A DNA stretch of 32,000 nucleotides from Coprobacillaceae bacterium (GCA_963675915.1 OY780959.1:570001-602000), one strand, 5' to 3'. Positions 5,047 to 24,294 are shown, counted from the first letter of the stretch. Made by a program: numbers and translations. Notes: a model not told the origin generated them from the sequence alone.

Positions 5047-5066
5047 GGGTGGCAATTTTGCCACCC
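5047..5066. repeat. Palindrome family copy 1: GGGTGGCAATTTTGCCACCC
   Basis: Identical 20-mer to copy 2. Intergenic: 34 nt after the adhesin stop and 31 nt before the next start. Confidence 0.9.
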
Positions 5067-5096
5067 CAACTAATATGAATAGAAAAGAGGATATAT

Positions 5097-5816
5097 ATGA
5101 CAAGAGAACTAATCGTTGAGGTTGGAGATAAGGTCAATACCAGCCTTGGAAGACATACGTTGGTTATCGGAGCTGAGAAAGATTATGTGGTCTTGCAAGC
5201 CGATAAACAGTATGTCATCGCTCATGGACCGTATTTTGATGATATAAATGAAATCGTCAGCTGGGGCTATGGTGATTATCTAAAAAGCTTCGAGGAATTG
5301 GCAATGAAGATAGTAAGTATCAAATCAAAGGAAAATTATCGGGAGTTGGAGTCGCTTTTAAGTGAGATTGCCAGCAGTAATCATGAATCGTACACAAAAG
5401 CTATTATGGCTATCGAACTTAACGTGTCCAATGACAAATTTCTTGAACAGATGTATCAGCAATATATGGACAGTGATGTGCAGTTGCTTGATGAGCGGAT
5501 TTATGAAGAATTTACAGTCGAGTTGTTAAAGAACATCAAAGACTATTGTGCTGCGCTGGATGAATACGCTGAAAGTTTTGATCACTACGAGTATAAGGAT
5601 CAAGAAATAATGCCTAGGCAAGATGTTATCGATCATATGGCTGAGGCTATTTTCAATGGCAATAGCGAGAAAGTACTTATCGCACTTGATACGACTATCA
5701 AAACATACTGCGATGATGAGGAAATCGTTGCAAATCTCCAAACTTTCAAAGATGACCTGGAAAACAGTGACTTTCATAAATACACATTGATGAAGCAAAA
5801 TGGTATGGCTAGATAG
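5097..5816 (+). CDS. Hypothetical acidic protein (239 aa), function unknown
   Basis: RBS AAGAGGA 7 nt upstream. D/E-rich sequence. No motif that I can name. Confidence 0.6.
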   Translation: MTRELIVEVGDKVNTSLGRHTLVIGAEKDYVVLQADKQYVIAHGPYFDDINEIVSWGYGDYLKSFEELAMKIVSIKSKENYRELESLLSEIASSNHESYTKAIMAIELNVSNDKFLEQMYQQYMDSDVQLLDERIYEEFTVELLKNIKDYCAALDEYAESFDHYEYKDQEIMPRQDVIDHMAEAIFNGNSEKVLIALDTTIKTYCDDEEIVANLQTFKDDLENSDFHKYTLMKQNGMAR

Positions 5817-5840
5817 AAATGGTTGATAGTGATAATGGTG

Positions 5841-6182
5841 ATGAACAAAGTAGCTTTTGCAGGTCTGCTCAATACTGACCCGGTAATTGATAGTCAACTT
5901 AAGATAGAACATAAAAGAGACTTTTTGGTCTATTTCGATCTTACTGTCAACTCGATTAGTGACGATACTGAGTGTACGAAAAAGATTCGGTGTGAGGTCC
6001 GTGACAATGCTGCTGAAAAGTTTTATCGGTATGCTAAAAAAGGGGACCTGGTCGAAATCAAAGGCGTAATTGAAAATAATCCTATTAAAGACGTTCATAA
6101 TCAGGATGAAAATTTTTATGTGAAGGTCGAAGGATTTAGAATTTATGTGGCCGAAGATTATCAAAAGATAACGGCTAATTAG
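5841..6182 (+). CDS. Divergent SSB-like OB-fold protein lacking the acidic C-terminal tip (start uncertain: 5823, 5835 or 5841)
   Basis: MNKVAFAGLLNTDPVI... and ...AAEKFYRYAKKGDLVEIKGVIENN follow the SSB pattern (v.liGrl..dPe ... ae.....l.KG..v.v.Grl). It ends ...AEDYQKITAN with no DDDIPF-type tail. Confidence 0.5.
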   Translation: MNKVAFAGLLNTDPVIDSQLKIEHKRDFLVYFDLTVNSISDDTECTKKIRCEVRDNAAEKFYRYAKKGDLVEIKGVIENNPIKDVHNQDENFYVKVEGFRIYVAEDYQKITAN

Positions 6183-6227
6183 ATAGATTGATATGAATCA
6201 TTTAGATTAACACGGGAGGTTGTTGAT

Positions 6228-6485
6228 ATGAAGAAAATAAGTATTAAAGAACTGGCATCCAAATACAAGCTGGTTCCCAATGAGATGATCACCTATATCA
6301 TCATCAATACCGCAACAAACAAGATCGGCTTTTTTGATGGTGGGTATGAGTATTTGGTATCCCGTACCAATCTTTCAAGACGGACTATTACTACCGCTAT
6401 AAAAAAATTGGTGGATTTAGGGTTGATTGAAAGAGAATATGTACAAAATAGAGAAATTTTATTTATTGCTAAGGAGATGAGCTAA
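6228..6485 (+). CDS. Small winged-helix DNA-binding protein (85 aa)
   Basis: GGGAGG RBS. LVSRTNLSRRTITTAIKKLVDLGLIERE is a typical wHTH recognition segment. Confidence 0.55.
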   Translation: MKKISIKELASKYKLVPNEMITYIIINTATNKIGFFDGGYEYLVSRTNLSRRTITTAIKKLVDLGLIEREYVQNREILFIAKEMS

Positions 6486-6817
6486 TGAGAAAAACACATA
6501 AAATTAAGACTATTATTGCAACTGTATTGGCTATGATATCTGTCAATATTGTAAGTGTCTATGCCGCCGGACCGGACGTGGAGGCGGCCAAGAGTCTGGT
6601 CAAACCATGGATTGATGGTCTGATCACTTTCATGTTGTGGTTGGTTCCGGGGATCTTGATTGTCTATATTGCCAGAATCGCAATCAAATATCTGTCAGCC
6701 AGCGAAGAAGAGCGTCAACGGATCAACACCTGGGACAAGATTAGTAAGGGGCTTATAATTGCGGTTGTAGCCGAGTCGATAGTAGCTATTATCAAGATAT
6801 TCGGATTCGCTTGGTAG
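6485..6817 (+). CDS. Small secreted two-helix membrane protein with VirB2/TrbC-like topology
   Basis: TAATG overlap with the upstream gene. Long signal peptide ending VYA|AG, then two hydrophobic helices separated by the charged loop SASEEERQRINTWDK. Confidence 0.45.
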   Translation: MRKTHKIKTIIATVLAMISVNIVSVYAAGPDVEAAKSLVKPWIDGLITFMLWLVPGILIVYIARIAIKYLSASEEERQRINTWDKISKGLIIAVVAESIVAIIKIFGFAW

Positions 6818-6853: not shown

Positions 6854-6873
6854 GGGTGGCAATTTTGCCACCC
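6854..6873. repeat. Palindrome family copy 2: GGGTGGCAATTTTGCCACCC
   Basis: Intergenic. It abuts the RBS (GGAAGGGAGAG) of the VirB6-like gene. Confidence 0.9.
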
Positions 6874-6893: not shown

Positions 6894-8732
6894 ATGTCGA
6901 TACCTGAGTTGATCAGAAGTCTGATTTGGGGAATTACATCATTATTTCTTAATATCATTGACTCATTATGGAATATTGCCAGGATGATTGTCGGTATGGA
7001 TTTTGCCAATCAGGAATGGATTTGGAGTTGGCTGAAGGTTTTGAATGTCTTCCTGATATTTTTTGTCATTGTATTTTCATTTAAGACTTTCATCAAGGCT
7101 TATTTCGATGACGATTACATGAACAATATAAATATCTCGAAATTGTTGATGAAACTGTTTATGGTTTTTTTCTTTATCGCCATAATGCCCCTGGGAATAC
7201 AAACGGTCAGTTCAATGTCGAGTCAGATGGCAAAAAACATTGGAACTTTTACCGGTGTGGGCGAGAGCAAGTTATCGACTATTATTGTCAATTCATCATC
7301 CATGGATCTGTCTAATATCGACGAGGAGTTTGCCGCCATGGGAGATGTGCTAAGTGACCAACTGGATAGTGCCAATGACAACATCCTTTCAGAGTCTAGT
7401 TGGGAGGAAATGAAAAGCCGAATAATTGATGGTTCCGCTTCATATTTGTACTCACAGATGCCTGAAAGTGAACGGGTTTCCGTCGCTGATGAGATCTATA
7501 AAACAACATATGATGAATATGTCGAATGGAAAGAGAGCATCAATTATGACAGTATTCTGGGGGACAGTTATTGGGTTAACGAGGATATCAATGATATCGA
7601 TATCAACAGTGGTGAGACCTCGGGAGAGTGGTATGACTATTTGATTGATAGTATCAGTTTTGGTTTCTCCGGAGATTTGGAGAAAGCATATTACTTTTTC
7701 CCTAGTTGGTCATCCCTGTTTCTGGTTCTGATAACATCGCTGGTTTTCTTGTTGATATTCATTGGTGTGATAATCCAGATGGCTCAAAGGATATTCAGCC
7801 TGGTATTGAAGGTGTTTTTGATGCCCTACGCAGTATCGACAATGGTTGATCCCGAGAGTAAAACATTTTCGGTATGGATCAAGTATATGGTGGCCGATGT
7901 ACTATCTAACTGGTTCCAATTATACTCGGTAATGTTCCTATTCGCTTTTATCGGAAATAACACTTTGGAGAATTTACTTGTAGGTAGTGGCCCGGTAACC
8001 ATAGAAGTGGAAATGACCAAACTGCTCCTTTTGATTGGTGGGTTGATGGCAATCTACACCAGTCCAAGTGGAATAGCCGCCATTCTTGGGGGTTCGGAAG
8101 TGTCAGCATCAAGTTCTCTAATGAATACGACCTCAATGCTGCGCATGGCATATAGTGGCATCGGAGCGGTTGGAACGGTGGGCGCCCTTGGATATGTGGG
8201 TTTAACATCAGGAGGAAATATGGGACTTAGAGGAATCAATAATGCAACCAGGGCAACGAGTGCTGTGGCGAATATGGTTACTGGAGGAAGTTACGGTAAT
8301 TCATTTGGCAGCAGCAATGGCATTGGTGGTCGGATTAAAAGCACTGGGCTTGGTAGTGCAATCTATAGTGGGTTGTACGGTGGATCGAGCGGCGATGCTG
8401 GTAGTGGTTCTGGAATCATGACGGCTAGGGAATTCAATGATTCGCCTACGCAAAGTCAAATGGAAAAAGCGAGCAACTTAGATATCAAAACAGAAGGCAT
8501 GAATAAAGGTCAGCTTGGAATCAAGATAGACCGGACCACCGATAACTTGAGAGGAGCATCAAACCACTTGAGAAACAATGAAAAATGGAACGTAAACAGT
8601 ATGACGACAAATTATCCCAGAGCCAGAAAAACGGCCAATACCATTGCCAAAGTGCATAGCAAGGTAAATACGATTTCCAAAAACAAAGTAACTCGAAGCT
8701 CACTGCCAATAAATTTTACGGATCGGAGATAA
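6894..8732 (+). CDS. Polytopic membrane protein, VirB6/TrbL-like T4SS channel component, with a Gly/Ser-rich C-terminal region
   Basis: At least five or six hydrophobic helices (for example VLNVFLIFFVIVFSF, LFLVLITSLVFLLIFIGVIIQM, LLLLIGGLMAIY). G/S-rich tail. It lies between the VirB2-like and VirB3-like genes. Confidence 0.55.
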   Translation: MSIPELIRSLIWGITSLFLNIIDSLWNIARMIVGMDFANQEWIWSWLKVLNVFLIFFVIVFSFKTFIKAYFDDDYMNNINISKLLMKLFMVFFFIAIMPLGIQTVSSMSSQMAKNIGTFTGVGESKLSTIIVNSSSMDLSNIDEEFAAMGDVLSDQLDSANDNILSESSWEEMKSRIIDGSASYLYSQMPESERVSVADEIYKTTYDEYVEWKESINYDSILGDSYWVNEDINDIDINSGETSGEWYDYLIDSISFGFSGDLEKAYYFFPSWSSLFLVLITSLVFLLIFIGVIIQMAQRIFSLVLKVFLMPYAVSTMVDPESKTFSVWIKYMVADVLSNWFQLYSVMFLFAFIGNNTLENLLVGSGPVTIEVEMTKLLLLIGGLMAIYTSPSGIAAILGGSEVSASSSLMNTTSMLRMAYSGIGAVGTVGALGYVGLTSGGNMGLRGINNATRATSAVANMVTGGSYGNSFGSSNGIGGRIKSTGLGSAIYSGLYGGSSGDAGSGSGIMTAREFNDSPTQSQMEKASNLDIKTEGMNKGQLGIKIDRTTDNLRGASNHLRNNEKWNVNSMTTNYPRARKTANTIAKVHSKVNTISKNKVTRSSLPINFTDRR

Positions 8733-9071: not shown

Positions 9072-9696
9072 TGAATCCAAAAAGAAAAAGCTGATTGAAA
9101 AACGCAAGAGCAAACTGAGAAAGACCTTCGAGTGGCTGTCAATCGAGAGCCTTGAAGATGATTACGTGGTTCTCAAAGAAAAGAACCAAAACTATTTTGT
9201 TAAAGGAATCAAAGTTGAACCCAAGAACATTTATATGATGAACGACATGGAGCGCAACCAGTTCATTGAATCCCTAACCAGCGCATTTAATAAAATCAAA
9301 TCGAAAATCTATTGGAAGTTCGTCTACAACACCCCAACGTTAGACAGACAGAACGATGAGCTGATCAAACGAATTGAGCAAAGCGACAACCAACGACTCA
9401 ACTACTTAGCCCAACTGTATCTTGATTTCCATGAGTGGTATGTCGATAACTTTTACGAGATTTCATTTTACCTGGTAGTAGTTGAGGAAGAAAAATATCT
9501 CGAGAAGGTATTTGATGATTTGTATAAATATATGAGAAATACCCAGATGGTGGTAAGACCGATGGTAAAGTCGGATTACAAGAATATGATTAAATATGAC
9601 TTTGATAATGATAATATCGATGAGTACTATTTCAGCCGGATGCTCAATTATGAAAGTTATCATTTCAATAATTTATTCAAAGAAAGTGAGGATTGA
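9058..9696 (+). CDS. VirB4 N-terminal-domain-like protein (212 aa) with no ATPase domain
   Basis: GGGAGG RBS at 9048-9053. Lys-rich N-terminus, then TFEWLSIESLEDDYVVLKEKNQNYFVKGIKVEPKNIYMMNDMERNQFIESL, which resembles the N-terminal domain of monoderm VirB4 proteins (TcpF, PrgJ, Tn916 Orf16 type). Confidence 0.6.
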   Translation: MKKINESKKKKLIEKRKSKLRKTFEWLSIESLEDDYVVLKEKNQNYFVKGIKVEPKNIYMMNDMERNQFIESLTSAFNKIKSKIYWKFVYNTPTLDRQNDELIKRIEQSDNQRLNYLAQLYLDFHEWYVDNFYEISFYLVVVEEEKYLEKVFDDLYKYMRNTQMVVRPMVKSDYKNMIKYDFDNDNIDEYYFSRMLNYESYHFNNLFKESED

Positions 9697-9698
9697 TT

Positions 9699-9812
9699 AT
9701 GTATATACCTAATGAGAACTGGGGAGACCTTGAACAAGACGGATACAATGAAGAAGAACTAGATGAAGTATTGTATATTGCGGTCGAAGAATTTGACGAA
9801 GAAGAGGGGTGA
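9699..9812 (+). CDS. Hyper-acidic 37-aa micro-ORF (not in the supplied ORF track)
   Basis: MYIPNENWGDLEQDGYNEEELDEVLYIAVEEFDEEEG has 15 D/E and no K/R/H. GTGAGGA RBS lies 6 nt upstream. Its stop is embedded in the RBS of the next gene. Confidence 0.5.
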   Translation: MYIPNENWGDLEQDGYNEEELDEVLYIAVEEFDEEEG

Positions 9813-9817: not shown

Positions 9818-10795
9818 ATGGCTAAGAAACCAAGAAAAACTGATAAGGAGAAATATGAGGATTGGCAAAAGAAGATTGCCGATTTTTTTATCTCCGACCT
9901 GCAAAGAGTTAAGGATGATACTGAGAATGGGATAGAAAATACCCGACTTTCATGGAAAAAGGGTTGGGTTACTTTCATGCAAAAATCGATGGCTAGTGGC
10001 AAGGATTATTCAGGCAGCAATCAGATGCTGCTGACATTGGTGAACTATATCAAGGGTTATACTGATAGCCGCTGGGTCACCTATAATCAGATAATCCAGC
10101 ACAATAAGGAGTGCAACGAAGATGAGAAGTGGAATATCCCCAAAGAAAAGATCAGCGCCAAAGACGGTCATCTGTTTTCAATCCGGTATGTAAGTACCAG
10201 ATACTTGTATGAAAATGATAAAAAATATTATACCAAGAAACAGCGTGACGAAATGCTCAGAAAAAGCAAAGGTCAGATCAAGAAAGACGATTTCAGGGAA
10301 TTTTACAAAATAGGTTATAACAATGTTTACAACGTGAGTATTGTAGATGGAATTGCACCGGAGACAAGCATGGAAGTCGATTTCGATAACCAAGTGGTTG
10401 ACAAGCTAGTTTCCAATTTTTTGAAAGAAACCGGAATAGAATTGATACATGCGCAACAATCCAGCGCTTTTTATGAACCGGCGAGGGATCGGATCTGCCT
10501 TCCACTGCAGTCGAATTTCAATAATGAGCAAGGTTATTATTCGGTATTGCTTCATGAGGTGGGTCATTCGATTGGACATAAGGATAGGTTGAATCGAACC
10601 GGAGTAACCGGGATGGTTGATAAAACTGAATACGCTAGGGAAGAACTGATTGCGGAACTTACCAGCGTTCTATTGAACACCCGGTTCAATATCCATATTG
10701 ATGAAGACTTTGATAACAAGTATAACAACAATCTTGCTTATATTGAAAGCTGGATTCAAATTCTCAATGATGATGTAGCTAGCCATTTTATTTGA
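9818..10795 (+). pseudogene. ardC: ArdC-like antirestriction protein (ssDNA-binding N-domain plus HExxH zincin), 5' part; native sequence ends at 10773 and the last 7 codons plus the stop come from the transposon end
   Basis: WKKGWVTFMQ...YSGSNQMLL...RWVTYNQI (ArdC-N). LLHEVGHSIGHKDRLNR...YAREELIAELTSVLL (metallopeptidase). The frame is broken by the insertion at 10774. Confidence 0.8.
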
Positions 10796-11584: not shown

Positions 11585-12832
11585 ATGGATAAAAAAGAAC
11601 AAGAATACGTAGCGTTGATGCGCCATCGGATCATTCATGACATCATTACCGGAAATTATGATGCTGCATGGTCTAAGAATCAGGCGATTACGGAAGCTAC
11701 CAAGAAAGTCTATAAGAGTTTCGACAACCGTGATTTCACTGTCTCAAGCAGTACCATCTCCAGATGGATTGCTGCTTACGAAGAAAAAGGCTTCGATGGA
11801 TTGATTCCTCAAAAGCGGAGTGATTGTGGCAAGTCAAGAAGACTGGATGATGACATCGTTGAAACAATCAAATATTATAAGACAACCTATCCTAGATTGC
11901 CGGCAACTGTAATTTACGGCAAGTTGATTGAAAAGGGAATCATCAAGAAAACTGATGTTTCGCTATCAACCGTTAATCGATGTGTCAATCAGATAAAGTC
12001 GGAATTGCGTCTATCAAACAAGAAAGACATGCGCCGCTACGAAGTGCCCCATATCAATATGAACTGGGCTGGTGACAGTTCGGTCGGTCCTTACATAACC
12101 ATTAATGGCAAGAAAAACCGAACTTATATGATTGCCCTGATTGATGATGCTTCAAGGATGATCGTCCATCTTGATTTGTATTTGAATGACAACACAGTCA
12201 ATTTGATGGATACTATGAAAAGTGCGGTCACCAAATACGGAATTCCTGAGATGTTCAGGTTTGACAACGGCTCCAATTATCGAAATCACCAGATCAAGAT
12301 GATTGCAGCAAGGATTAATTCAACCATCAGCTACTGCAAACCGTACTCGCCGGAAGGAAAATCAAAAATTGAGCGGGTGTTTCGGACGATTAAAGATCAG
12401 TTCTTCGCCCAAATAAACATAAAAGATTACACAAACAATCTAGAAGGTTTGAAGCAGGATTTAAGCCAGTTCATCAATGATTACAACAACAAGGTGCATT
12501 CGTCTTTGAATGGATTGACACCTCATCAACGTTTTTTTCAGGAAAGCAATCTGATCAAAAGGCTTGATGATGACTTTATCGACAATACTTTCCTGTTCGA
12601 AGTAGAGCGGTCTGTCAGTACTGATTCGGTAATCAAAATAGATAATCGGGAATACGAGATTGATTATATCTATTCTGGTGAAAGGCATATGTTCCGATAT
12701 ACTCCGGACTTGGAAAACGTCTATATAGTTAACAAGAATACCGGCGAACTGGAACGGATTCACCTACTTGATAAAAACGCTAATTCAAAAGTAAAACGAG
12801 TGCAGCCAAAATTATGCGGAGGAGAAGATTAA
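11585..12832 (+). CDS. DDE (rve-type, Mu/TnsB/TniA-like) transposase
   Basis: GGAGG RBS. N-terminal HTH. Catalytic candidates are WAGDSS, RFDNGSNY and PEGKSKIERVF. The C-terminal segment VIKIDNREYEIDY is Mu-transposase-C-like. Confidence 0.85.
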   Translation: MDKKEQEYVALMRHRIIHDIITGNYDAAWSKNQAITEATKKVYKSFDNRDFTVSSSTISRWIAAYEEKGFDGLIPQKRSDCGKSRRLDDDIVETIKYYKTTYPRLPATVIYGKLIEKGIIKKTDVSLSTVNRCVNQIKSELRLSNKKDMRRYEVPHINMNWAGDSSVGPYITINGKKNRTYMIALIDDASRMIVHLDLYLNDNTVNLMDTMKSAVTKYGIPEMFRFDNGSNYRNHQIKMIAARINSTISYCKPYSPEGKSKIERVFRTIKDQFFAQINIKDYTNNLEGLKQDLSQFINDYNNKVHSSLNGLTPHQRFFQESNLIKRLDDDFIDNTFLFEVERSVSTDSVIKIDNREYEIDYIYSGERHMFRYTPDLENVYIVNKNTGELERIHLLDKNANSKVKRVQPKLCGGED

Positions 12833-13635
12833 TGGAAAAATATTGGACCAGATACGGATTGGAATTCAATCCGTTTATCAAGAACTCAAAGAATTTATTT
12901 ATTGAAACAAGTGAATACCAGGAATTGAAAGTACGCCTTAACAGCCTTTTTGAAATCAAAGGTTTCGGACTAATAGTCGGTGAACCTGGACATGGCAAAA
13001 CAACCATGATCAGGAACTATATCAAAACACTCCCCAAATCAGCTTACAAGATAATTTATTTGTCAATGTCGACCCTTACAGTCAAGGAATTCTATATGCA
13101 ACTGGCTGAGTCGCTGGATTTGACTCCTCGGTATCGAAAGAATGATCTGTTCAGGGAGATCCAATCAGCCATAAACCAGTTGATTTACGAAAAAAGGATT
13201 ACCCCGGTGTTTATCTTTGATGAATGTAATTACATGAATAACGCCATTCTTAATGATTTGAAGATGATCTTCAATTTTGATATGGATTCCAAGGATCATG
13301 CGGTAGTCTTGATGGTCGGATTGCCGACAATAACCAGGAACCTTAAATTGACCGCTCATGAACCACTGCGTCAGCGAATGATTATCAATTACAAACTGGA
13401 GCCGTTAAACAAAACTGAAAGTCTTGCTTATATCAAAGACAAGCTCCAAGGCGGAAAAACAATTCAAGAAGTGTTCAACGACAATGCCATTGAAGCAATC
13501 ATCAATGCATCCAACGGCACCTGTCGGGTTATTGATCGGATATGCGACCGGGCAATGTTTATCGGAGCAATCAGAAAAATCGAAGTAATTGATTCCGATT
13601 TAATCCTAGAAACAATCGAAGAGGTAGTAATTTGA
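12832..13635 (+). CDS. AAA+ transposition ATPase (TniB, TnsC or Tn552 p271-like)
   Basis: TAATG overlap with the transposase. GGAGGAG RBS. Walker A GEPGHGKTT. Walker B VFIFDECN. Confidence 0.8.
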   Translation: MEKYWTRYGLEFNPFIKNSKNLFIETSEYQELKVRLNSLFEIKGFGLIVGEPGHGKTTMIRNYIKTLPKSAYKIIYLSMSTLTVKEFYMQLAESLDLTPRYRKNDLFREIQSAINQLIYEKRITPVFIFDECNYMNNAILNDLKMIFNFDMDSKDHAVVLMVGLPTITRNLKLTAHEPLRQRMIINYKLEPLNKTESLAYIKDKLQGGKTIQEVFNDNAIEAIINASNGTCRVIDRICDRAMFIGAIRKIEVIDSDLILETIEEVVI

Positions 13636-15614: not shown

Positions 15615-16451
15615 TTAGAAATATTTTCTTAGAGTATGGGCAATTCCATCTTCTTCGTTGGATAGAGTTATTTCATTGGCTATGGATTTCAAATCATCAA
15701 CTGCATTGGCCATTGCAACACCGATACCAGCATATTCAACCATCGATGCATCATTATGGCCATCACCAAAGGCAATCATTTGGTCACGATTATATCCCAT
15801 CGGTATTAGAACAGTGTCTAAAGCTTTTGCCTTGTCAATTCCGTTTGCGGTAAATTCAAAATAAAATGCGCCCGTGAACATACAATTGAGATTATCTTTG
15901 AATGGTTCTGCCATCGCTTGATAATTGTCAAGCAGGTACTCAGGATCACCGGCTGTTAAAATCTTGTTCAATGGATAATCGGCAAATTTTGCCAAATCAT
16001 CGATTTCACAAAGTTTAAATTTACCGCCACGTGATTCGTATTTGATTACATTGAAAGGTTCCCCTTTGACGTTGATGTGACAATCGAACACATTATTAAC
16101 AAACATATATTCGTCCTTGTCAATCATCGGTTTAACATTGAATTTCTTCATATGTTCCAAAACTTCCTGCCCCTGGGCAACTCTCATAGTTTCATTAAAT
16201 AGAATTTCATTGGTTTGACAGTTAATGACTTTTGAACCATTGAAACTTACTAGTAGACCATCATTTTTGTCCATTTCCAATTCCTTGGCAAAATCCACCA
16301 ATCCCGAAGTTGGTCTTCCTGATGCAAGAATAAGTTTAGAACCTTTGTTTTGCGCTTCAATTAGTGCTTTCTTGGTTTCTGGTGTAATGATTTTATCACT
16401 GTTAGTCAGAGTGCCATCTACGTCCAGTATTATCACTTTGATTTCTTTCAT
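15615..16451 (-). CDS. Cof-type HAD-IIB sugar phosphatase
   Basis: GAGGAGG RBS. IILDVDGTLTN...ASGRPTSG...FGDGHNDASM motifs. Confidence 0.85.
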   Translation of the reverse strand: MKEIKVIILDVDGTLTNSDKIITPETKKALIEAQNKGSKLILASGRPTSGLVDFAKELEMDKNDGLLVSFNGSKVINCQTNEILFNETMRVAQGQEVLEHMKKFNVKPMIDKDEYMFVNNVFDCHINVKGEPFNVIKYESRGGKFKLCEIDDLAKFADYPLNKILTAGDPEYLLDNYQAMAEPFKDNLNCMFTGAFYFEFTANGIDKAKALDTVLIPMGYNRDQMIAFGDGHNDASMVEYAGIGVAMANAVDDLKSIANEITLSNEEDGIAHTLRKYF

Positions 16452-16654
16452 TTGTGTTCCTCCTCTTACAACTGAATCATACCAGTTATTTTGGAAAAGT
16501 ATATACGGTGAAATGGAGTTGAAAAGTATTTCTCAAAAATTGATGGAATAATTGAATGAAATTGATAATTACTTTTCGATTGAGCTATCAAAAGAAAAGT
16601 ATGTAATAAAGTATGATAGTATTTTAGATATAAAATCATGTAAGGAGAAATTAA

Positions 16655-17488
16655 ATGGGTAAAATTATTTTTATTGATGTTGATGGAACGCTATTAAACT
16701 ATGAGAATAAGCTTCCAAAATCTGCTGAGGCGGCGATAAAATCAGCTCGAAAAAATGGTCATAGAGTTTACATCTGTACCGGGAGATCTCGAGCTGAGGT
16801 CTATCCGTATCTGTGGGATATTGGATTGGATGGTATGATTGGTGGAAATGGAAGTTATGTTGAAGATGAGGGTAATGTGGTTATGCATCAGCTTATATCG
16901 AAGGAACAGGCTAAACACATTGTTGATTGGCTCCTGGATCGAAAACTTGAATTTTATTTGGAAAGTAATAATGGTCTTTTCGCGAGCGAAAACTTTGAAA
17001 CTCGCGGTGAACCAGTTATGCAAGAATACTCAAGAAGGAAAGGAAAAGAAAATGCCAACAAACTCACTGTCAAAGATATCTATCCTGAGATGATCTACGG
17101 CGGGGAACTTTACCGGGATGATTTGAATAAGGTGAGTTTCATTCTTGAAAGCTATCAGGATCATCTTGATTCAATCGCTGAGTTTCCGGATCTGAAGCCT
17201 GGGACCTGGGGCGGTGTCGGAGAGATTGCATTGTTTGGTGACCTGGGGGTAAAAGACATCACCAAAGCGAATGCCATTAACCATCTCTTAGTTTACTTGG
17301 ATGCTGATCTTGAAGATACGATTGCCTTTGGGGATGCAAAAATTGATATCCCAATGCTGGAATATTGTAAAGTTGGAGTTGCAATGGGAAGTGGTGGTGA
17401 TGAAATAAAATCAATGGCTGATTATGTCACCGATGGTGTTGACGAAGATGGGTTGTACAATGCTTTTGTCCATCTCGGGCTGATTTGA
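16655..17488 (+). CDS. Cof-type HAD-IIB hydrolase
   Basis: AAGGAG RBS. IFIDVDGTLLN...CTGRSRAE...FGDAKIDIPM motifs. Confidence 0.8.
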   Translation: MGKIIFIDVDGTLLNYENKLPKSAEAAIKSARKNGHRVYICTGRSRAEVYPYLWDIGLDGMIGGNGSYVEDEGNVVMHQLISKEQAKHIVDWLLDRKLEFYLESNNGLFASENFETRGEPVMQEYSRRKGKENANKLTVKDIYPEMIYGGELYRDDLNKVSFILESYQDHLDSIAEFPDLKPGTWGGVGEIALFGDLGVKDITKANAINHLLVYLDADLEDTIAFGDAKIDIPMLEYCKVGVAMGSGGDEIKSMADYVTDGVDEDGLYNAFVHLGLI

Positions 17489-17663
17489 AATTGAATCGGT
17501 ATTAATCAAAAATATAATGATTAATATTTGCTCTATTGTCTTGATTTGCAATGGGGCTTTTTATTATTTCATTTTTCAATAATTCAAAATATCTGATTCT
17601 CGTGATGCCGTAGTAGTATAATAAAATATATATTTGAGGAATTTTAGAAAAGGGGTAATATCA

Positions 17664-18512
17664 ATGAATATATTTTTGCTATTGAAATCAGAAAAAATGT
17701 CTCCTAATGAAAAAATAGTGGCGGATTTCATTTTGGAACAGCCAACTGCATTCCTCAATATGAATGCAAAGCAGATTTCCAAAACATGTTTTGTTTCAGT
17801 GGCAACTATTTACCGATTATGTGAGCGACTAAATCTTGGCGGATTGTCGGAATTGAAATTGAAAGTTTCTAGTTCACTTGAGTCATATCTTCAACTGGAT
17901 GAAGGATTCGACTATGATTTCCCCGTTCAGGAAAATAACTCGCCAATTCAAATTGGTAACCAGTTGAGTGTTGACTACCAAAAAACTGTTGAAACAACTC
18001 TTAATCTTTTTGATGAAAAGGAAATCAGGAAAATAGTAAAAGCTATGGATAAGGCTGATGCAATAGATGTCTATACATCGGCTGGGAATATATATTTTGC
18101 TCAAAATTTCATGTTTCAAATGAATGAAATCGGGAAAACAGTAAATGTTCCCATTGAAGAGTACCATCAAAGATTATGTGCAGCTTCGAGTGATAAAAGG
18201 CATATTGCAGTAATTATATCATTTGGAGGGAGAGGTCTTCTGGTTGAAAATATTGCTAAAATATTAGTAGAAAATGGCACCCCTATTATTTTCATTTCGT
18301 CATTTGATTTTAAAATGTCTAATGTGAAAACAGACTTCAACCTCTATATGAGCCCATATGAAAATCACTATAAGAAGATATCCTCGTTTTCGACCAGGTT
18401 ATCTCTGCTTTATCTTTTAGATGTAATTTATACCTGTTATTTTGAACTAGATCATCAGAATAACATTGCCAAGAAATTGGATTATTATAGTAAAATAAGA
18501 AGGATCAAATAA
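17664..18512 (+). CDS. RpiR/MurR-family transcriptional regulator (HTH_6 plus SIS domain)
   Basis: AAAAGGGG RBS 8 nt before the ATG at 17664. IVADFILEQP...AKQISKTCFVSVATIYRLCERLNLGG HTH. SIS-like AIDVYTSAGNIYFAQ. Confidence 0.75.
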   Translation: MNIFLLLKSEKMSPNEKIVADFILEQPTAFLNMNAKQISKTCFVSVATIYRLCERLNLGGLSELKLKVSSSLESYLQLDEGFDYDFPVQENNSPIQIGNQLSVDYQKTVETTLNLFDEKEIRKIVKAMDKADAIDVYTSAGNIYFAQNFMFQMNEIGKTVNVPIEEYHQRLCAASSDKRHIAVIISFGGRGLLVENIAKILVENGTPIIFISSFDFKMSNVKTDFNLYMSPYENHYKKISSFSTRLSLLYLLDVIYTCYFELDHQNNIAKKLDYYSKIRRIK

Positions 18513-18567: not shown

Positions 18568-18592
18568 AGGCAATCTTGGATTGCCTTTTTCT
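18568..18592 (+). terminator. Rho-independent terminator after the RpiR gene
   Basis: AGGCAATC (18568-18575) / GATTGCCT (18579-18586) followed by TTTTT. Confidence 0.65.
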
Positions 18593-18661
18593 TATGTGAA
18601 AATGAAAGGGAGTTATAGCAAATGAGTTGCATTATCGAATTTGAAGAGTGTGAGGATAAAC

Positions 18662-20485
18662 ATGGAAAACAGTGAAATCAAAAAATTGAAATCAAAAATT
18701 GCCCCATTGAATCTAAGTTTTGGAAGAAATCATATACGAATGGGTGATAAATACCAACGGGTCATTACAGTAATTGAATTTCCTGACCGGTTCTATTCCG
18801 GTATTTTGTCAGGTCTAGTATCCAGCGGGGACCCGGATATCAAGGTTGAAATGGTGACCAGGCAAAGTGATTATTCGATTGCCAATCTGATCAACCGAGA
18901 GGTAAAAACCATGGAAATGGAATATCGAAATTCCAACGTCACGAATAAGGAGGCGTTGGCCCAAAAAATGGAAAGTCTTGAGGATTACATCAAGGAGCTC
19001 ATCAGAAGGAAAGATCGCACCTACAATGTGTTGCTAAATATTACGGTATCGGATCATAATCTAAACAAACTTAATGAGAAGACCAAAGATATCAAGGAGA
19101 ATCTAATAGCGTATGGATATAAGTCTGCGACAATAGATTTCAATCAAGAGAAGTTACTGAAGAAAACATCCGTCTGGTTCTACCACGATAATTACAATGA
19201 CGATATGAATTATAACCTGGGATGTTTGATGTCAGCCCAGAGTCTCGCGGGCCTATATCCTTTTATCTTCGACACCTTGGATGATGAACACGGACTGTTA
19301 TTGGGTCATGAACTCAATAATTTCGGCAAGATAGTATTTGATCAATTCTTCTACAAAAATAGCTATGAGCAGGCCAAAGTTTACAACCGTTTGAATGGGA
19401 ATATGATTGTCATCGGAGCCACCGGACAAGGAAAAACTACAACAGTAAATATGATCATGATGAATCATATGGTCAATCGTCGAAAGATACTGTGGATCGA
19501 TCCTGAAAATAAAATCAAAACATTGATAGAAAAGACCAATGGCTCGTTCTTCAATCTAGGGTCGAATAATGCGAGAATAAATATCTTTGATTTGAAACCA
19601 ATCTCCAGTGACGAAGACGAGGAAGTTGATATGTATAATACCGAGTTGGCCATTTACAATGTAGTTGAAGATATCAAAATCGTCTTAGGGTATCTATATC
19701 CGGATATAAAAGCTGAAACTCTTGCAATAATCGGTGATCTTGTAGTCAGGACTTATGAGTCGATAGGGATCGACTTCAAAACGAATTTCAAGTACTTGAA
19801 GGCTACCGACTATCCGACGTTCACTCATTTTTCTTCTATCGTCGATGAAAGAATTACCCAATACGAAAATATCAGTTCCGGAAATATTGAATACAACGCG
19901 TTGCGGGATATTCAAAACAAACTGGTGCCGATTCTAACGGAGTATGCCCGATATTTTGATGGCAGCACCACGATCAATACCGACGAAAATGCTAATCCGT
20001 TTATCGGCTTTGGAACCAAGATATTTTTCAATCAGACAGAAAAAGTGAGAAATGCGATCATGCATATCATCTTCCAGTTTGCCTGGTCCTTGTGTCTGGA
20101 TGAATCCGAATTCAGTGCATTCTGCATTGATGAAGCCCATCTAATGATCAATGAAGGAACAACTGCCAAGATGGTAGAACAGTTCATGAGACGCTCCAGA
20201 AAATACAATAACGCCACTATAATCTCTACTCAGGAGAGCAACGACTTTACCAATGAAGAGAACCTATCAAAAGGTAAGGCAATATTCAATAATGCCTGTT
20301 ACAAAATCATCATGAAACTCGAGCTTAACGGTATTAGTGATCTGAATAAATTGATGTATCTTACTGATGGTGAAAGTAATTTAATCGGCGATTTAAGCCA
20401 GGGAGAGGCTATTCTAATCGCTGGTAAGAAACGGATTCCAATAGCGGTAAGGTTGACACCTGAAATGCTGTCACTAATGTCATGA
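18662..20485 (+). CDS. virB4: VirB4-family T4SS ATPase (central and ATPase domains only)
   Basis: GAGGA RBS at 18653-18657. IAPLNLSFGRNHIRMGDKYQRVITVIEFPDRF (VirB4 mid-domain pattern). Walker A GATGQGKTT. Walker B AFCIDEAH. Confidence 0.85.
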   Translation: MENSEIKKLKSKIAPLNLSFGRNHIRMGDKYQRVITVIEFPDRFYSGILSGLVSSGDPDIKVEMVTRQSDYSIANLINREVKTMEMEYRNSNVTNKEALAQKMESLEDYIKELIRRKDRTYNVLLNITVSDHNLNKLNEKTKDIKENLIAYGYKSATIDFNQEKLLKKTSVWFYHDNYNDDMNYNLGCLMSAQSLAGLYPFIFDTLDDEHGLLLGHELNNFGKIVFDQFFYKNSYEQAKVYNRLNGNMIVIGATGQGKTTTVNMIMMNHMVNRRKILWIDPENKIKTLIEKTNGSFFNLGSNNARINIFDLKPISSDEDEEVDMYNTELAIYNVVEDIKIVLGYLYPDIKAETLAIIGDLVVRTYESIGIDFKTNFKYLKATDYPTFTHFSSIVDERITQYENISSGNIEYNALRDIQNKLVPILTEYARYFDGSTTINTDENANPFIGFGTKIFFNQTEKVRNAIMHIIFQFAWSLCLDESEFSAFCIDEAHLMINEGTTAKMVEQFMRRSRKYNNATIISTQESNDFTNEENLSKGKAIFNNACYKIIMKLELNGISDLNKLMYLTDGESNLIGDLSQGEAILIAGKKRIPIAVRLTPEMLSLMS

Positions 20486-21123
20486 AGAAATTGATAATTT
20501 CTGCAACTGCGTTTTGTTTTGTATTCATTATGTTTATATTTCTAGTGGCAGTGATTGGTGATGAAAGTGAAAGCAGCATCGAAAAAACGACGAATAATTG
20601 TAATAGTAGTTTAGTAGAAAATTTTATTGAGTACGCAACAAGTGAATACGAAACCTGCGGCAGTGTACTCGGTGGAGACAAATATCGTGAGTGGTATATC
20701 GGCAGCATTGACAATGAGCCATGGTGTGCCACTTTTGTCAGTTATATTGCCGCCAAGACCGGTATCTTGTATACCGTGATTCCAAAATTCCAATCGTGTG
20801 ATGCAGGAATTAGATGGTTCAGTGAAAACGATCAATATTTCAACACTACTGAATATGGTGGTAGTTATGATGAACCTTCACCTGGTGATATCGTATTTTT
20901 CTCACAAGTTCATGATAAAAATGACAGTACCCATGTAGGAATCGTTGTGTCATATGAAAATGGAGAAGTAACTACGATTGAAGGCAACTCGGGAAACCAG
21001 ATTAAAATGAAGTCATATAACATTAATAGTAAATTTATAATCGGATATGCAGTTCCTGATTACACAAGTTCAACCGTAATCAGGTCAAATTTAACGAGAG
21101 GAGGTGAAGATGCAAATGATTAA
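20482..21123 (+). CDS. Membrane-anchored CHAP-domain peptidoglycan hydrolase (VirB1 analogue)
   Basis: 4-nt overlap with virB4. N-terminal TM helix. Catalytic EPWCATFVSY and THVGIVV...TIEGNSGN. Confidence 0.8.
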   Translation: MKKLIISATAFCFVFIMFIFLVAVIGDESESSIEKTTNNCNSSLVENFIEYATSEYETCGSVLGGDKYREWYIGSIDNEPWCATFVSYIAAKTGILYTVIPKFQSCDAGIRWFSENDQYFNTTEYGGSYDEPSPGDIVFFSQVHDKNDSTHVGIVVSYENGEVTTIEGNSGNQIKMKSYNINSKFIIGYAVPDYTSSTVIRSNLTRGGEDAND

Positions 21124-21674: not shown

Positions 21675-21694
21675 AGGTGGCAAAATTGCCACCT
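21675..21694. repeat. Palindrome family copy 3: AGGTGGCAAAATTGCCACCT
   Basis: 14 nt after the stop of the lipoprotein gene. It is the only copy followed directly by a T-run (TTTTA). Confidence 0.9.
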
Positions 21695-22015: not shown

Positions 22016-22208
22016 GGTATCTAAAGAATGGGTGACGGGAAGGTTATGATTATGTCACCCATGGAATTTCTTAGCAGGTTAAGGGGTTTGTATTACAAAA
22101 TTGAAATTTTTGTCATCCAAACCCAGGGAACAACGCACCAACGGTGCGTTTTGACGTATGACAAGATGTAAACGGATGGGTGACATTAAATGATGTCACC
22201 TTTAATAT
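22016..22208. other. Candidate oriT: 193-bp non-coding region with three hairpins upstream of the relaxosome operon
   Basis: Hairpin A: ATGGGTGAC (22028-22036) / GTCACCCAT (22054-22062). Hairpin B: AACGCACC-AAC-GGTGCGTT (22132-22150). Hairpin C: GGTGACAT (22179-22186) / ATGTCACC (22193-22200). The 9-mer ATGGGTGAC recurs at 22028 and 22176. Confidence 0.45.
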
Positions 22209-22241
22209 TTGTATGACAAAGATTTTGGAGAAGGAGTAGTT

Positions 22242-22646
22242 ATGGCGAATATGACGAGTAAAAGGTTATCGGTAAGGATTGATGATTCTACCTCAGCCAA
22301 GTTGGATTTTCTGATGACATGTCTGGGATCCCTGGTTGAAAACAATAGTACGTCTTCATTGATCAAGTACCTGATCGATGCCAAATTCAATGAGATTTCA
22401 ACTGGTATGCCCGGCAAACCAAATGACATATCAATGGATGAAATTCGAATGGGGAAAATAGATTATATCTTCGAGTATCTTGAGTTAATGGTGAAAGTGG
22501 ATCCCAATATCAAAGAGTTTTTTCTAGATGCCAACAACAATGAAAAAGAGGAGCTTATCGATAGATACGTGAATGCATCGTCGAGATTTAGAAAATATAT
22601 CGAAAGGAAAATTGAGTTGAAGGTGCATGATAGTGAGCAAGGATAA
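22242..22646 (+). CDS. Ribbon-helix-helix relaxosome accessory protein (pLS20 Aux1-like position)
   Basis: AAGGAG RBS. N-terminal KRLSVRIDDSTSAKLDFL fits an RHH beta-strand plus helix. Confidence 0.55.
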   Translation: MANMTSKRLSVRIDDSTSAKLDFLMTCLGSLVENNSTSSLIKYLIDAKFNEISTGMPGKPNDISMDEIRMGKIDYIFEYLELMVKVDPNIKEFFLDANNNEKEELIDRYVNASSRFRKYIERKIELKVHDSEQG

Positions 22647-23040
22647 TATAATCTCATTAAGAATTGGTGAAGATATTCAGAAAAAAATGGACACGATTAT
22701 CAACTTGCTCAATGAGAAAAGTATCAATAAGGTGAGTGGATATGAAGTATCCAAATCGGAAGCGATCATATCTGCTATTGAGCTTTATTATTTTTCGCTT
22801 GTCAATGAAGATAGTGCTGGAATTGTCTATGACACCATCGTCAATGCAATCAATACTTATCTGCGCTCACAAGTAAAGGTGGACAATTATTTCAAGAACA
22901 ATCTTCTTACTGAAGTGATTATCAATCAGGAGATGATCAAAGAAATGTTGCAAATTAATAAAATCGATTATGAAGATATTTCAGAGATCATCCAGGACAG
23001 GATCAATGAACGGATTATGACAGGTACTCAAGATGGATAA
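22627..23040 (+). CDS. Second RHH-like relaxosome accessory protein (Aux2-like position)
   Basis: It overlaps both neighbouring genes. N-terminal IISLRIGEDIQKKMDTIINLL is RHH-like. Confidence 0.5.
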   Translation: MIVSKDNIISLRIGEDIQKKMDTIINLLNEKSINKVSGYEVSKSEAIISAIELYYFSLVNEDSAGIVYDTIVNAINTYLRSQVKVDNYFKNNLLTEVIINQEMIKEMLQINKIDYEDISEIIQDRINERIMTGTQDG

Positions 23041-24229
23041 CGAAGTTCTGATATGCGAGATGCGATTTTTCGAGTATGGAAGTCCGGCACCAGAGGGTTC
23101 GAGATACAAAGGGACTGTCGATAGTGAGTCACTGGCTGGTTATATCGAATACACGCAACGAGAAGAAGCAAATGAAAAACATTGTGAAGATACCCTTCAT
23201 GAAGGAGGATATCTAGGGTATACCAGCAAGGAGGAAAGTACCTTCAGTTCCATTGGTTGGCTAAATGATGAAAATGAAAAACAGTTTAGAAATGAACTGT
23301 TGGATGCATTCAGCAATCCTGGTGATTTATGGTGGGAAATTATTTTTTCGATTGATAGTTTCGACACCGCCTATAAATTCGGGTTGAAGAATGTCGATGA
23401 TTATAAGGAGTATGTATCAAGTACCATGAACGGTATTTTCAAACAAATGGGTTTTGATGGCGATAACATGTTGTGGTGGGGCAACTATCACAAGGATACC
23501 ACTCATCCTCATGTCCATATCAATTTCATGGAAAAGGAAAAAACCAGGATCAAAGGAAAACTTAGGAAGAACGAATTAAAAAAAGTCAAAATCGAGTTTG
23601 CCAAGAATCTTGATTTGCGAGCAAGACTAGAAGAGCACACTAAGATGAGCAGCGAGGAATTTTTCGAGAACAAAGATATCCGGTTCAATGACTTGTTGGA
23701 GGTAATTGATCGTGATGTTTTGGCCAAGCCAATCAGGTCGGTTAGTGAGCTATACAAGATATTGCCGGACACAGGGAGGCTGCAGTATAACTCGGTGCAT
23801 ATGAAGCCGTTTAGAAAACAAATCGCCATGGTTGTTGATGAGGTATTGAAAGATCCTAAAATCAAACGCCAACTAACGAGTTACTACAATACTATTGAAG
23901 TCTTAGCTTCAAATATGGATGACTACTATTCCAGCAATAACAACAGAGGCGATGTAAATACCATTGTCAGTGCTGAGCAAAGGAGGTTGCATGAACGAAT
24001 TGCCAATCTGATTCTCAAAAAACACAAGACAAAGGTAATAGCCAAAAGGGTAAAGCCCGGTGGGAAACACAGCCCCAAAGGAAAAAGAAGAGACTTGAAA
24101 AAACCGTTTGGAAATCGTCATGCCAAAAAGATAACGCAACGATATCTGGATTTCTGCAATTTTCAAATTCAACGAGAAATGGATGAGTGGCAAAAAGCCA
24201 ACGATATTTATGACAGTATCCAAAAATGA
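23033..24229 (+). CDS. Conjugative relaxase, MobL (RelLS20)-like
   Basis: GYIEYTQREEA (Tyr motif) and NYHKDTTHPHVHINF (HxDxxxPHxH histidine triad). Basic C-terminal tail. It lies between the RHH genes and the coupling protein. Confidence 0.7.
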   Translation: MDNEVLICEMRFFEYGSPAPEGSRYKGTVDSESLAGYIEYTQREEANEKHCEDTLHEGGYLGYTSKEESTFSSIGWLNDENEKQFRNELLDAFSNPGDLWWEIIFSIDSFDTAYKFGLKNVDDYKEYVSSTMNGIFKQMGFDGDNMLWWGNYHKDTTHPHVHINFMEKEKTRIKGKLRKNELKKVKIEFAKNLDLRARLEEHTKMSSEEFFENKDIRFNDLLEVIDRDVLAKPIRSVSELYKILPDTGRLQYNSVHMKPFRKQIAMVVDEVLKDPKIKRQLTSYYNTIEVLASNMDDYYSSNNNRGDVNTIVSAEQRRLHERIANLILKKHKTKVIAKRVKPGGKHSPKGKRRDLKKPFGNRHAKKITQRYLDFCNFQIQREMDEWQKANDIYDSIQK

Positions 24230-24249
24230 AGGTGGCAATTCTGCCACCT
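24230..24249. repeat. Palindrome family copy 4: AGGTGGCAATTCTGCCACCT
   Basis: It starts 1 nt after the relaxase TGA stop. One mismatch in the arms. Confidence 0.85.
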
Positions 24250-24274
24250 GGTAACATTTATTTTCGATTGTGAA

Positions 24275-24294
24275 GGTGTGGCAATATTGCCACC
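24275..24294. repeat. Palindrome family copy 5: GGTGTGGCAATATTGCCACC
   Basis: The core GTGGCAATATTGCCAC (24278-24293) is a perfect 16-bp palindrome. It lies 20 nt before the coupling-protein start. Confidence 0.85.

Follow-up and report, generated by a model that had tools for sequence, protein, structure and literature searches.

Short operators that are repeated over a whole mobile element are known from several systems. On the IncP-1 plasmid RK2, KorB silences transfer and maintenance genes globally from its OB sites (PMC11790492). Cluster A mycobacteriophages carry stoperators, from which repressors of the L5 gp71 type silence by blocking elongation, and the motif co-varies with the repressor (PMC6550527, PMC9283540). 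In SPbeta, decades passed between the in silico detection of the 15-bp intergenic motif SPBRE and the recognition of the master repressor MrpR as its binder (PMC10516654). Here, a family of palindromes is described in a 32,000-nucleotide stretch of DNA from a Coprobacillaceae bacterium (GCA_963675915.1, OY780959.1:570001-602000). This stretch is referred to as the window, and positions are counted from its first letter. Domain searches of its open reading frames (ORFs) identified a Gram-positive conjugative element with a MobL relaxase and a type IV secretion system (T4SS). Dispersed regulatory sites on mobile elements are already known. What is new is the perfect 8+2+8 palindrome, its lineage-specific switching within one Firmicute conjugative family, and a dense lineage with copies inside ORFs.

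The core TGGCA-N4-TGCCA occurs six times in the window, where 0.01 occurrences are expected from dinucleotide-preserving shuffles. Five of these occurrences make up a GGTGGCA-N4-TGCCACC family and, according to the ORF list, all five lie between ORFs of the + strand. Their consensus RGGTGGCAAWWYTGCCACCY is matched at 5047, 6854, 21675 and 24230 and, with 2 mismatches, at 24276-24295 (0.04 expected from shuffles). The family had already been reported in a first-pass annotation of this DNA, and its sites and sequences could be confirmed. The description of the copies as marking module boundaries was overstated: they occupy intercistronic gaps without gene overlap, and related elements carry additional copies at other gaps and some within ORFs. 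The expectation of strictly intergenic placement holds for the window (5/5 copies) but not for the dense lineage.

Copies 1 and 2 are the same 20-mer, GGGTGGCAATTTTGCCACCC. Copy 1 (5047-5066) lies 33 nt after a stop codon, between the terminator that follows the adhesin gene and the ribosome-binding site (RBS) of the gene for a 239-aa acidic protein, and ends 30 nt before the next start codon. Copy 2 (6854-6873) separates the pilin-like gene (6485-6817) from the VirB6-like gene (6894-8732), following the stop codon of the former by 36 nt and preceding the start codon of the latter by 20 nt. Copy 3 (AGGTGGCAAAATTGCCACCT, 21675-21694) is located 13 nt after the stop codon of a 185-aa gene and 75 nt before an 81-aa ORF. 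Copy 4 (AGGTGGCAATTCTGCCACCT, 24230-24249), with one mismatch in its right arm, directly follows the stop codon of the MobL relaxase gene (0 nt) and opens a tandem pair. Copy 5 (GTGTGGCAATATTGCCACCG) has its best register at 24276-24295, with a perfect 16-bp core GTGGCAATATTGCCAC at 24278-24293. It begins 46 nt after a stop codon, and 18 nt separate its end from the GTG start codon of the gene for the VirD4-type coupling protein (T4CP). The tandem copies 4 and 5 (24220-24305) can also pair with each other, the long-range fold reaching -33.4 kcal/mol versus -14.0 and -10.7 kcal/mol for the local folds.

The same motif, GGTGGCAA-WW-TTGCCACC, recurs in four related loci: L196, whose backbone proteins are 94-98% identical to those of the window, and L001, L010 and L203, with 55-80% identity. 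All five copies are found in L196, three in L203 and two in L010, while L001 carries four copies of AGGTGGCAATTTTGCCACCT next to a relaxase that is only 58% identical to that of the window. Two positions are kept widely. The palindrome upstream of the T4CP gene is present in the window, L196, L001 and L010 with the arm GGTGGCAA, and in L002, L006 and L011 with the arm GATGGAAC. The pilin|VirB6 gap holds GGTGGCAA in the window, L196 and L203, and a palindrome of the locus' own in L197 (GATGGAAC) and L200 (GCTGGTAA). Among the GGTGGCAA elements all other positions vary. At orthologous sites the 18-mers are 0.89-1.00 identical, versus 0.29-0.50 for 30+30 nt of flank (0.73 in one pair). For copy 2, the comparison of the window with L203 gives a core identity of 100% and a flank identity of 42%. 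Because the 18-mer is conserved while its flanks diverge, it is under nucleotide-level selection, and a hairpin that needs only to fold is ruled out, since the bases and not just their pairing are kept; such a hairpin would be expected to drift by compensatory change.

Single copies do change between siblings. The copy 1 of L196 has a TA centre and a 12-bp stem, its copy 3 has a G-to-A change in the left arm, and its copy 4 shows a different single mismatch (AGGTGGAAATTTTGCCACCT) than copy 4 of the window. As the two mismatches differ, copy 4 decays independently in the two siblings.

More distant backbone relatives lack the window motif and carry other palindromes of like design, with 8-bp arms, a WW centre and an invariant TGG..CCA. 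The arm GATGGAAC is found in L002, L006 and L009/L011/L012, at 12-17 copies per ~20-kb locus when at most 1 mismatch is allowed (up to ~24 in L011 with looser copies), and in L197-L199, with six copies that are all intergenic. The CTGGTAA-AT-TTACCAG type is present in L200-L202 from Thomasclavelia ramosa (up to three per locus), the arm (C)ATGGCAA-W-TTGCCAT(G) in L014 (two copies), and the GTGGGCAA, AGTGGGCAA type in L013 (two copies). Copies within one element are alike in arm, and the pilin|VirB6 gap, the pre-T4CP site and the site after the Ig-like gene each carry the palindrome of the respective lineage. In an alignment of 34 sites, T6, G7, G8, A10 and their partners are invariant, 7/11 pairs change on both sides, and 91% of the cells pair. 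The covariation score was 0.453, compared to 0.163 for shuffles and 0.05-0.14 for slid controls. Since the switches are few between-lineage events, this covariation represents concerted change rather than many independent compensations, and the palindromes of a lineage evolve in concert.

In the dense GATGGAAC lineage there is ~1 copy per kb, compared to 3-6 copies per 20 kb in the low-density lineages. Of its 45 copies, 17 (38%) lie inside ORFs. The frame GAT GGA ACW WGT TCC ATC is used by 14 of these 17 and nominally encodes DGTSSI, with occasional single-residue variants; it employs two serine codon families, as the palindrome demands. Two in-ORF sites in TopA are shared by L002 and L006, and L011 keeps one of the two; a further site in the first auxiliary gene is kept across L002, L006 and L011. 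The residues adjacent to all of these sites vary, and the DGTSSI copies show the strength of the constraint on the palindrome.

Other features of the GATGGAAC elements involve the palindrome as well. A second repeat, GAATGTCTACGAACATTC (a 6-6-6 inverted repeat), occurs at ~2040-2060, 2950-2970 and 15985-16000 in L011 and at ~1031 in L009. At a distance of 130-350 nt, it precedes several operons, parA among them; frequently it comes shortly after the signature palindrome. It may be a conventional promoter operator. A ~50-nt repeat of L002, consisting of the palindrome followed by CACAAAATTAAATAACTAAAGACGGTCGTAA, is present three times (9652-9700, 9880-9930 and 22017-22065), two of them in the 740-nt gap ahead of the coupling-protein gene. 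At L002 17212, L197 1076 and L006 12971 and 15343, the GATGGAAC palindrome itself supplies a start codon and the first residues (MEQVPS, MEHVPS, MELVPC). The genes with such a start include that of a 120-194 aa protein encoded directly after ParA.

The geometry of the palindrome is fixed: all 27 GGTGGCAA-type and all 53 GATGGAAC-type copies have the same arm spacing. Positions 8 and 11 would fall within the loop of a 4-nt-loop hairpin and could not pair there. These positions are complementary in nearly every GGTGGCAA copy outside the distant T4SS loci L135 and L123, copy 4 of the window being the sole exception seen. They are C/G in every perfect GATGGAAC copy, with few exceptions among imperfect copies, the search patterns behind some of the GATGGAAC copy listings fixing these two positions. 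Neither strand stands out. In a tally of the copy listings, AA and TT centres were about equally frequent. Across families, A-richness upstream of the copies equals T-richness downstream, and imperfect copies hold G.T-type and A.C-type mismatches in a ratio of 8 to 7. The symmetry of centres, mismatches and flanks bears out the first-pass proposal that the conserved unit is a strand-symmetric DNA palindrome and not an oriented RNA motif. Isolated half-sites show no clear excess and are mostly the remaining arms of degenerate palindromes, so that the unit is the whole palindrome; functional half-sites like those of uptake sequences or Chi were rejected for the same reason. Nor do the copies resemble oriT inverted repeats, as no conserved sequence was found 3' of them.

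The palindromes form a real family that belongs to the conjugation backbone. No copy was found in the ~10 kb of insertion sequence (IS) and cargo DNA of the window, in 7 kb beyond the backbone of L010 or in 3.8 kb of chromosome at L198. For zero copies in these ~21 kb of non-backbone DNA, a combined P of ~0.01 was obtained by hand arithmetic from the coordinates, assuming uniform placement. In IMG/VR, GGTGGCAA-NN-TTGCCACC was found in 53 stretches, 52 of which have a single site, while two control palindromes whose arms are similar or identical in composition gave 17 and 30 matches. Most matches in a metagenome scan were single too, and many resembled ordinary bidirectional terminators. The multi-copy metagenome loci that were examined (L094, L125 and L135) carry T4SS, primase, adhesin or Ig-like surface-protein genes. 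As single matches are not rare relative to the controls, the 18-mer itself is unremarkable, and its repetition within one element is what is special. A BLAST search of both motifs (GGTGGCAA and GATGGAAC) against PLSDB yielded chance matches only. A literature search on the motif strings returned unrelated primer matches and no description of these palindromes.

Taken together, the data require a trans-acting, sequence-specific reader that changes with its sites. Constant geometry, symmetry between the strands and copies within ORFs all speak for duplex DNA and a symmetric oligomer. Our preferred reading, held tentatively and somewhat short of probable, is that the palindromes are dispersed duplex DNA sites for a putative element-encoded dimeric protein, like KorB operators, stoperators or SPBRE. 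Among the three options raised by the first-pass annotation, that of KorA/KorB-like operators is thereby the best supported, though not proven, while intercistronic RNA hairpins and hairpins of the transferred strand (T-strand) have lost ground. The palindromes would be cis-acting recognition sites, read by a dimer or a dimer of dimers. Each arm (nnTGGnAn) would serve as one half-site, and the A/T centre as an uncontacted, bendable spacer. With sites in nearly every intercistronic gap, one protein could act on the entire one-directional transfer operon at once. Its most likely action would be to block RNA polymerase or to nucleate a repressive complex until transfer is induced. Specificity may have switched several times, protein and sites changing jointly to give each lineage its signature arm. 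What we infer is a protein as the reader, duplex DNA as its target and silencing as the outcome. A roadblock or nucleation type of silencing is favored over promoter occlusion, because the copies have no associated promoters.

KorB is one of the closest precedents. Its OB sites are short perfect palindromes as well, repeated about a dozen times in IncP-1, with some copies far from promoters or inside genes (PMC11790492). The multi-copy, dispersed and gene-tolerated palindromes described here share this character with parS/OB sites, their geometry being different: the OB palindrome is 13 bp long without an A/T spacer, compared to 8+2+8 bp here. Furthermore, RK2 resides in Gram-negative hosts and shows neither lineage-specific arm switching nor a density of ~1 copy per kb. 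KorB contains a ParB domain, whereas no ParB/KorB-like protein was detected among the window ORFs or in the Pfam calls over parts of the related loci.

Stoperators share the presence of tens of identical sites over a mobile element, mostly away from promoters, and the occurrence of motif variants between related elements. Many identical, promoter-independent sites, mostly between the genes of long operons, are found here too, and the motif likewise diverges between related elements; the beta-strand of the auxiliary protein Aux2 differs by family, which is confounded with phylogeny. In contrast, stoperators are asymmetric phage sites to which a monomer binds and whose orientation follows that of transcription. 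Those of the conjugative element are perfect, unoriented palindromes with centres in both orientations. SPBRE resembles the palindromes in being a short motif repeated in several intergenic regions of a Firmicute mobile element. It differs in that it is an unrelated motif located in promoter regions, while no promoter is evident at the sites described here.

Known promoter and operator types do not fit the palindromes. A sigma-54 promoter was rejected upon sequence inspection, as the GG-to-GC distance is 9 bp and not 12 bp. When the right-arm TTGCCA is taken as a -35 box, there is no fitting -10 box ahead of the RBS, and an extended -10-like TGGTAAAAT was seen near copy 2 only. The Firmicute LexA (Cheo) box has a spacing of 4 bp, so that GAAC-N2-GTTC, with 2 bp, was rejected as such a box.

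Several observations weigh against duplex operators. Promoter and terminator scans and inspection of the flanks revealed no promoter-like element at a fixed offset from the copies, which makes classical promoter occlusion unlikely. Between the window and its sibling L196 (95-97% identical), conservation of the palindromes does not exceed that of their flanks. Motif type is not a simple reflection of the backbone phylogeny, GGTGGCAA arms being found in distant T4SS loci of 27% and 46% GC. A variant whose spacing is off by one nucleotide is found in each of two small families, CTGGTAA and GTGGGCAA. The outer stem pairs covary: the mean extension of the GGTGGCAA stems is 3.48, versus 2.42 for shuffled flanks (P=0.0002, a value inflated by locus structure), and P=0.03 was obtained for the GATGGAAC family in the same comparison. 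Such covariation and the 12-bp stem of copy 1 in L196 are expected of a hairpin, not of a dimer that binds duplex DNA. In L135 and L123 the same arms occur as AAAGGTGGCA-N4-TGCCACCTTTT(TT), and their free 4-nt loops and T-tracts identify these copies as genuine terminators. Finally, no ParB/KorB-type or repressor match was found for the small backbone proteins in Pfam, NCBIfam, PHROGs or the PDB.

The candidates for a reader were compared between elements. Two of the binders named in the first-pass annotation fall away: the XRE antitoxin is missing from L196, which keeps the palindromes, and the 85-aa winged helix-turn-helix (wHTH) protein is found in the window and L196 only, an HU-like gene occupying its slot in L203 although L203 has GGTGGCAA arms. 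L197 and L200 possess neither the wHTH nor the HU-like gene. The third suggestion, ribbon-helix-helix (RHH) proteins, stands in part. Aux1 and Aux2 both show an N-terminal RHH pattern and are present in all those motif families whose relaxase region was retrieved. The predicted DNA-facing beta-strand residues of Aux1 do not co-vary consistently with motif type, and this protein was rejected. Among the backbone DNA-binding proteins, a difference between motif families in the predicted DNA-contacting strand was seen for Aux2 (22627-23040) alone, and this difference is confounded with phylogeny. Judged by its sequence, this RHH relaxosome protein is a candidate binder and serves as a lead. In pLS20, the homologous Aux1 binds the inverted repeat TGGTACCA in oriT (PMC5675868). 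The ParA partner of the GATGGAAC elements has no recognizable domain. A 122-aa protein of the window was rejected as a binder, being acidic, of low complexity and not homologous to this partner, and the ~150-aa protein adjoining recombinases (a pseudogene in the window, from 28992) was rejected because it is not universal.

The strongest competitor of the duplex-operator reading is that the palindromes act as intercistronic RNA hairpins of 8-10 bp, GC-rich, serving as weak terminators or attenuators or protecting processed mRNA segments from exonucleases. The shared sequence would then be recognized by one element-encoded RNA-binding factor (e.g. an antiterminator or a processing nuclease) or by an antisense RNA. 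We consider this explanation unlikely, yet worth serious attention. The stems are stable, the copies being predicted to fold with -10.7 to -18.7 kcal/mol (z-scores of -1.8 to -6.1; copy 1: -18.7 kcal/mol, z -5.6). All window copies are intercistronic, and four of the five end 18-75 nt ahead of a start codon, with copy 4 directly upstream of copy 5. An RNA hairpin would account for the outer-stem covariation, the lengthened copy 1 of L196 and the loop-length variants, and also for the perfect 11-12 bp stems with differing outer pairs in L014, which point to a hairpin. A path from A-U over G.U to G-C is seen at arm position 2, where L006/L011 have GGTGGAAC..GTTCCATC and L197 has GGTGGAAC..GTTCCACC. 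T-tracts accompany copy 3, ~8/28 of the intergenic GATGGAAC copies, the L200 copies and all copies of L135/L123. In Gram-positive conjugation operons, many internal terminators are bypassed by processive antitermination (PMC8191782, PMC8955417).

However, it is the sequence and not pairing alone that is conserved at orthologous sites, and the loop-closing positions and the spacing are fixed. Whereas the stem of an intrinsic terminator is free to vary in sequence, the arms are identical within elements. The transcripts are predicted to form stable GC-rich stem-loops like those of intrinsic terminators, but copies 1, 2, 4 and 5 lack a U-tract. Only copy 3, flagged as terminator-like, has a T-rich tail on the coding strand, which upholds the initial statement that most copies are not canonical terminators. 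Copy 1 is even preceded by a separate canonical terminator (5008-5029), as is its counterpart in L202 of T. ramosa. T-tracts, centre orientation and G.U versus A.C mismatches show no strand asymmetry, and 38% of the copies of the dense lineage lie in ORFs, a place where termination or processing of the transcript would do harm. No Rfam family matched the window.

The pLS20 family offers further parallels. Its members also combine a MobL relaxase, long one-directional operons and GC-rich hairpins between genes, which act as internal terminators (PMC8191782, PMC8955417). Those terminators, subject to conAn-type processive antitermination, have U-tracts, whereas four of the five window copies do not; in addition, the stems described here are identical within an element, and relatives have in-ORF copies. 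To our knowledge, the pLS20 terminators have not been described as sharing sequence with each other. EGeRS1 and EGeRS2 of the same family are repeated, GC-rich sequences, rich in inverted repeats, found immediately upstream of the RBSs of several operons (PMC8708921). The MobL-type background and a repeated inverted-repeat sequence ahead of RBSs are thus shared. EGeRS1, however, measures 420-750 bp, has a complex structure and is confined to establishment operons, whereas here one palindrome of 18-20 bp lies in the transfer operon itself.

Less probable still, and in our estimation quite unlikely, is a function as single-stranded DNA (ssDNA) hairpins of the T-strand, which would snap back in the recipient and be read by e.g. 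a DUF3991/Toprim primase or a single-stranded DNA-binding (SSB)-like protein. The purpose would be multi-point priming of the complementary strand, or protecting or marking the incoming strand. A precedent for a structure-and-sequence-specific reader is the RepB' primase, which recognizes the ssiA/ssiB hairpins of RSF1010, and the joint occurrence of stem covariation and sequence conservation would fit such a reader. The multi-copy pattern is seen only at T4SS-bearing loci (among the multi-copy metagenome loci whose genes were examined, L094, L125 and L135 all have conjugation genes), and SSB-like, ArdC, TopA and Toprim-primase proteins are among the products of the elements. Predicted folding energies of -5.7 to -10.4 kcal/mol indicate stable DNA hairpins, action on DNA accounts for the in-ORF copies, and the density of ~1 per kb in one lineage resembles the spacing of Okazaki fragments. 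On the other hand, neither the window nor L196 was found to contain a primase gene, and the portions of L203 and L001 that were retrieved showed none either. G.T wobbles are not biased to one strand, palindromy through the centre is unnecessary for a hairpin, and low-density lineages have just 3-6 copies per 20 kb.

It is very improbable that the palindromes are host-specified or selfish, i.e. a repetitive extragenic palindromic (REP)-like repeat, a favored host terminator stem or a sequence spread by recombination, with no dedicated role on the element: the GGTGGCAA arms are common to L196 and L203, two different elements on one chromosome (ctg9560c), motif type seems to track host group (Coprobacillaceae, Thomasclavelia cocleata, T. 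ramosa) over backbone phylogeny and single 18-mer copies act as ordinary terminators in many low-GC contigs, but the ~21 kb of cargo, IS and chromosomal DNA beside the backbones hold zero copies, the motifs are absent from PLSDB, orthologous copies are maintained across deep divergence (including in-ORF copies with palindrome-preserving codons), and the window ORFs, with transposases of the IS21 and IS66 types, include no RAYT (IS200/IS605-type) transposase as known from REPs and bacterial interspersed mosaic elements.

A broader proposal, which we regard as improbable, is that the lineage signature palindrome, filling the free intercistronic gaps, constitutes a self-DNA tag for an element-encoded reader, be it as duplex or as snap-back hairpin. 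Uptake sequences offer a parallel. The uptake signal sequences and DNA uptake sequences of Haemophilus and Neisseria occur at ~1 copy per kb, are enriched between genes and often form terminator-like inverted repeats; inside ORFs they prefer certain frames and variable protein regions. This distribution resembles that of the palindromes in the dense GATGGAAC lineage. The uptake sequences are, however, non-palindromic, genome-wide and read by the competence machinery, while here the whole palindrome is the unit and is confined to conjugative elements.

The sixth occurrence of the TGGCA-N4-TGCCA core (site at 14722) needs to be separated from the family. It belongs to a palindrome at 14719-14738 that shares only this core with the five copies. 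The palindrome lies inside the 17-bp spacer of a promoter, TTGACA-ATATGGCATATATGCCA-TATAAT, directly upstream of a Gp49 (HigB-like)/XRE toxin-antitoxin (TA) pair (14764-15407), with the operator ATATGGCATATATGCCATAT within 14713-14744. It thus overlaps the module's promoter, as is characteristic of TA autoregulatory operators. The TA module is absent from the 98%-identical sibling L196, which retains the five-copy palindromes. This palindrome is a separate TA operator, part of the cargo and unrelated to the family.

The element itself is integrated, since the coupling protein and VirB4 sit on a 2.6-Mb contig. A near-identity search of the window against PLSDB gave no match, and a protein search with the relaxase returned only MobP2/P3 relaxases of 23-27% identity. 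Its genes comprise a thioester/SpaA adhesin (514-5013), the 239-aa acidic protein (ATG at 5097), an SSB-like protein (5823-6182), the wHTH protein (6228-6485), the pilin-like (6485-6817) and VirB6-like proteins (6894-8732), ArdC, VirB4 (18641-20485), a CHAP hydrolase (20482-21123), Aux1 and Aux2 (22242-22646 and 22627-23040), the MobL relaxase (23033-24229), the T4CP (24314-26344), a pentapeptide-repeat protein (26337-27761) and an Ig-like surface protein (27779-28912). The slot just upstream of the pilin-like gene is taken by the wHTH protein in the window (6228-6485) and L196, versus a HU/IHF-like protein of a different fold in L203 (2374-2661).

The backbone is interrupted by cargo (the TA pair, HAD hydrolases and RpiR) and an IS66 transposase. 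The anti-restriction gene ardC is split into an N-terminal part (9818-10795) and a C-terminal part (14103-14543) by an IS21-type insertion with DUF6431, IstA (11585-12832), IstB (12814-13635) and DUF6618 ORFs; in L196, ArdC is undisrupted (469 aa). Canonical terminators at 15462-15491 and 18568-18586 flank a block of cargo genes (15615-18512) for two HAD hydrolases and an RpiR regulator, which fits an inserted unit with its own transcription. Further downstream, a ~50-bp tandem duplication at 28992-29300 (with NNENFRIAKIEKIIEDNQKLVRDKK encoded twice) frameshifts the ~150-aa gene into a pseudogene. Undamaged homologues adjoin a recombinase/integrase in L010, L094 and L197, and their product may act in excision or regulation. 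An ORF for a YobI-like P-loop ATPase (29555-30316) adjoins the IS66-family transposase gene on the minus strand (30410-31981), and the right end of the element looks disrupted.

A likely oriT hairpin, AACGCACC-AAC-GGTGCGTT, is located at 22132-22150 (context 22016-22208), upstream of the auxiliary and relaxase genes. In relatives the AAC loop is kept and stem changes are compensatory (L002/L200: AACTGAGCAACGCTCAGTT; L009: AACTCAACAACGTTGAGTT; L197: AGACAATCGCAACGATTGTCT). GGGTGAC/GTCACCC inverted repeats flank the hairpin (~22029-22060 and 22178-22201) and are possible binding sites of the auxiliary proteins.

How conjugation is controlled in gut Firmicutes (Erysipelotrichales/Coprobacillaceae, Thomasclavelia) has hardly been studied, even though such elements are common; the VirB4 of one relative is found on 845 contigs. 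The 18-mer site provides a handle for finding a master regulator, and the palindrome can be used as a sequence tag to recognize and classify these elements in metagenomes. The lineages also form a natural system in which to follow how a protein and dozens of sites shift their specificity together. A role as RNA or ssDNA hairpin, if true, would be new for conjugation biology as well. If the palindromes are self-DNA tags, they might serve to silence the whole element, to prime at many sites or to protect the incoming strand. They would then be a conjugative counterpart of parS and uptake-sequence self-tags, and the switches in specificity could underlie incompatibility or immunity between elements.

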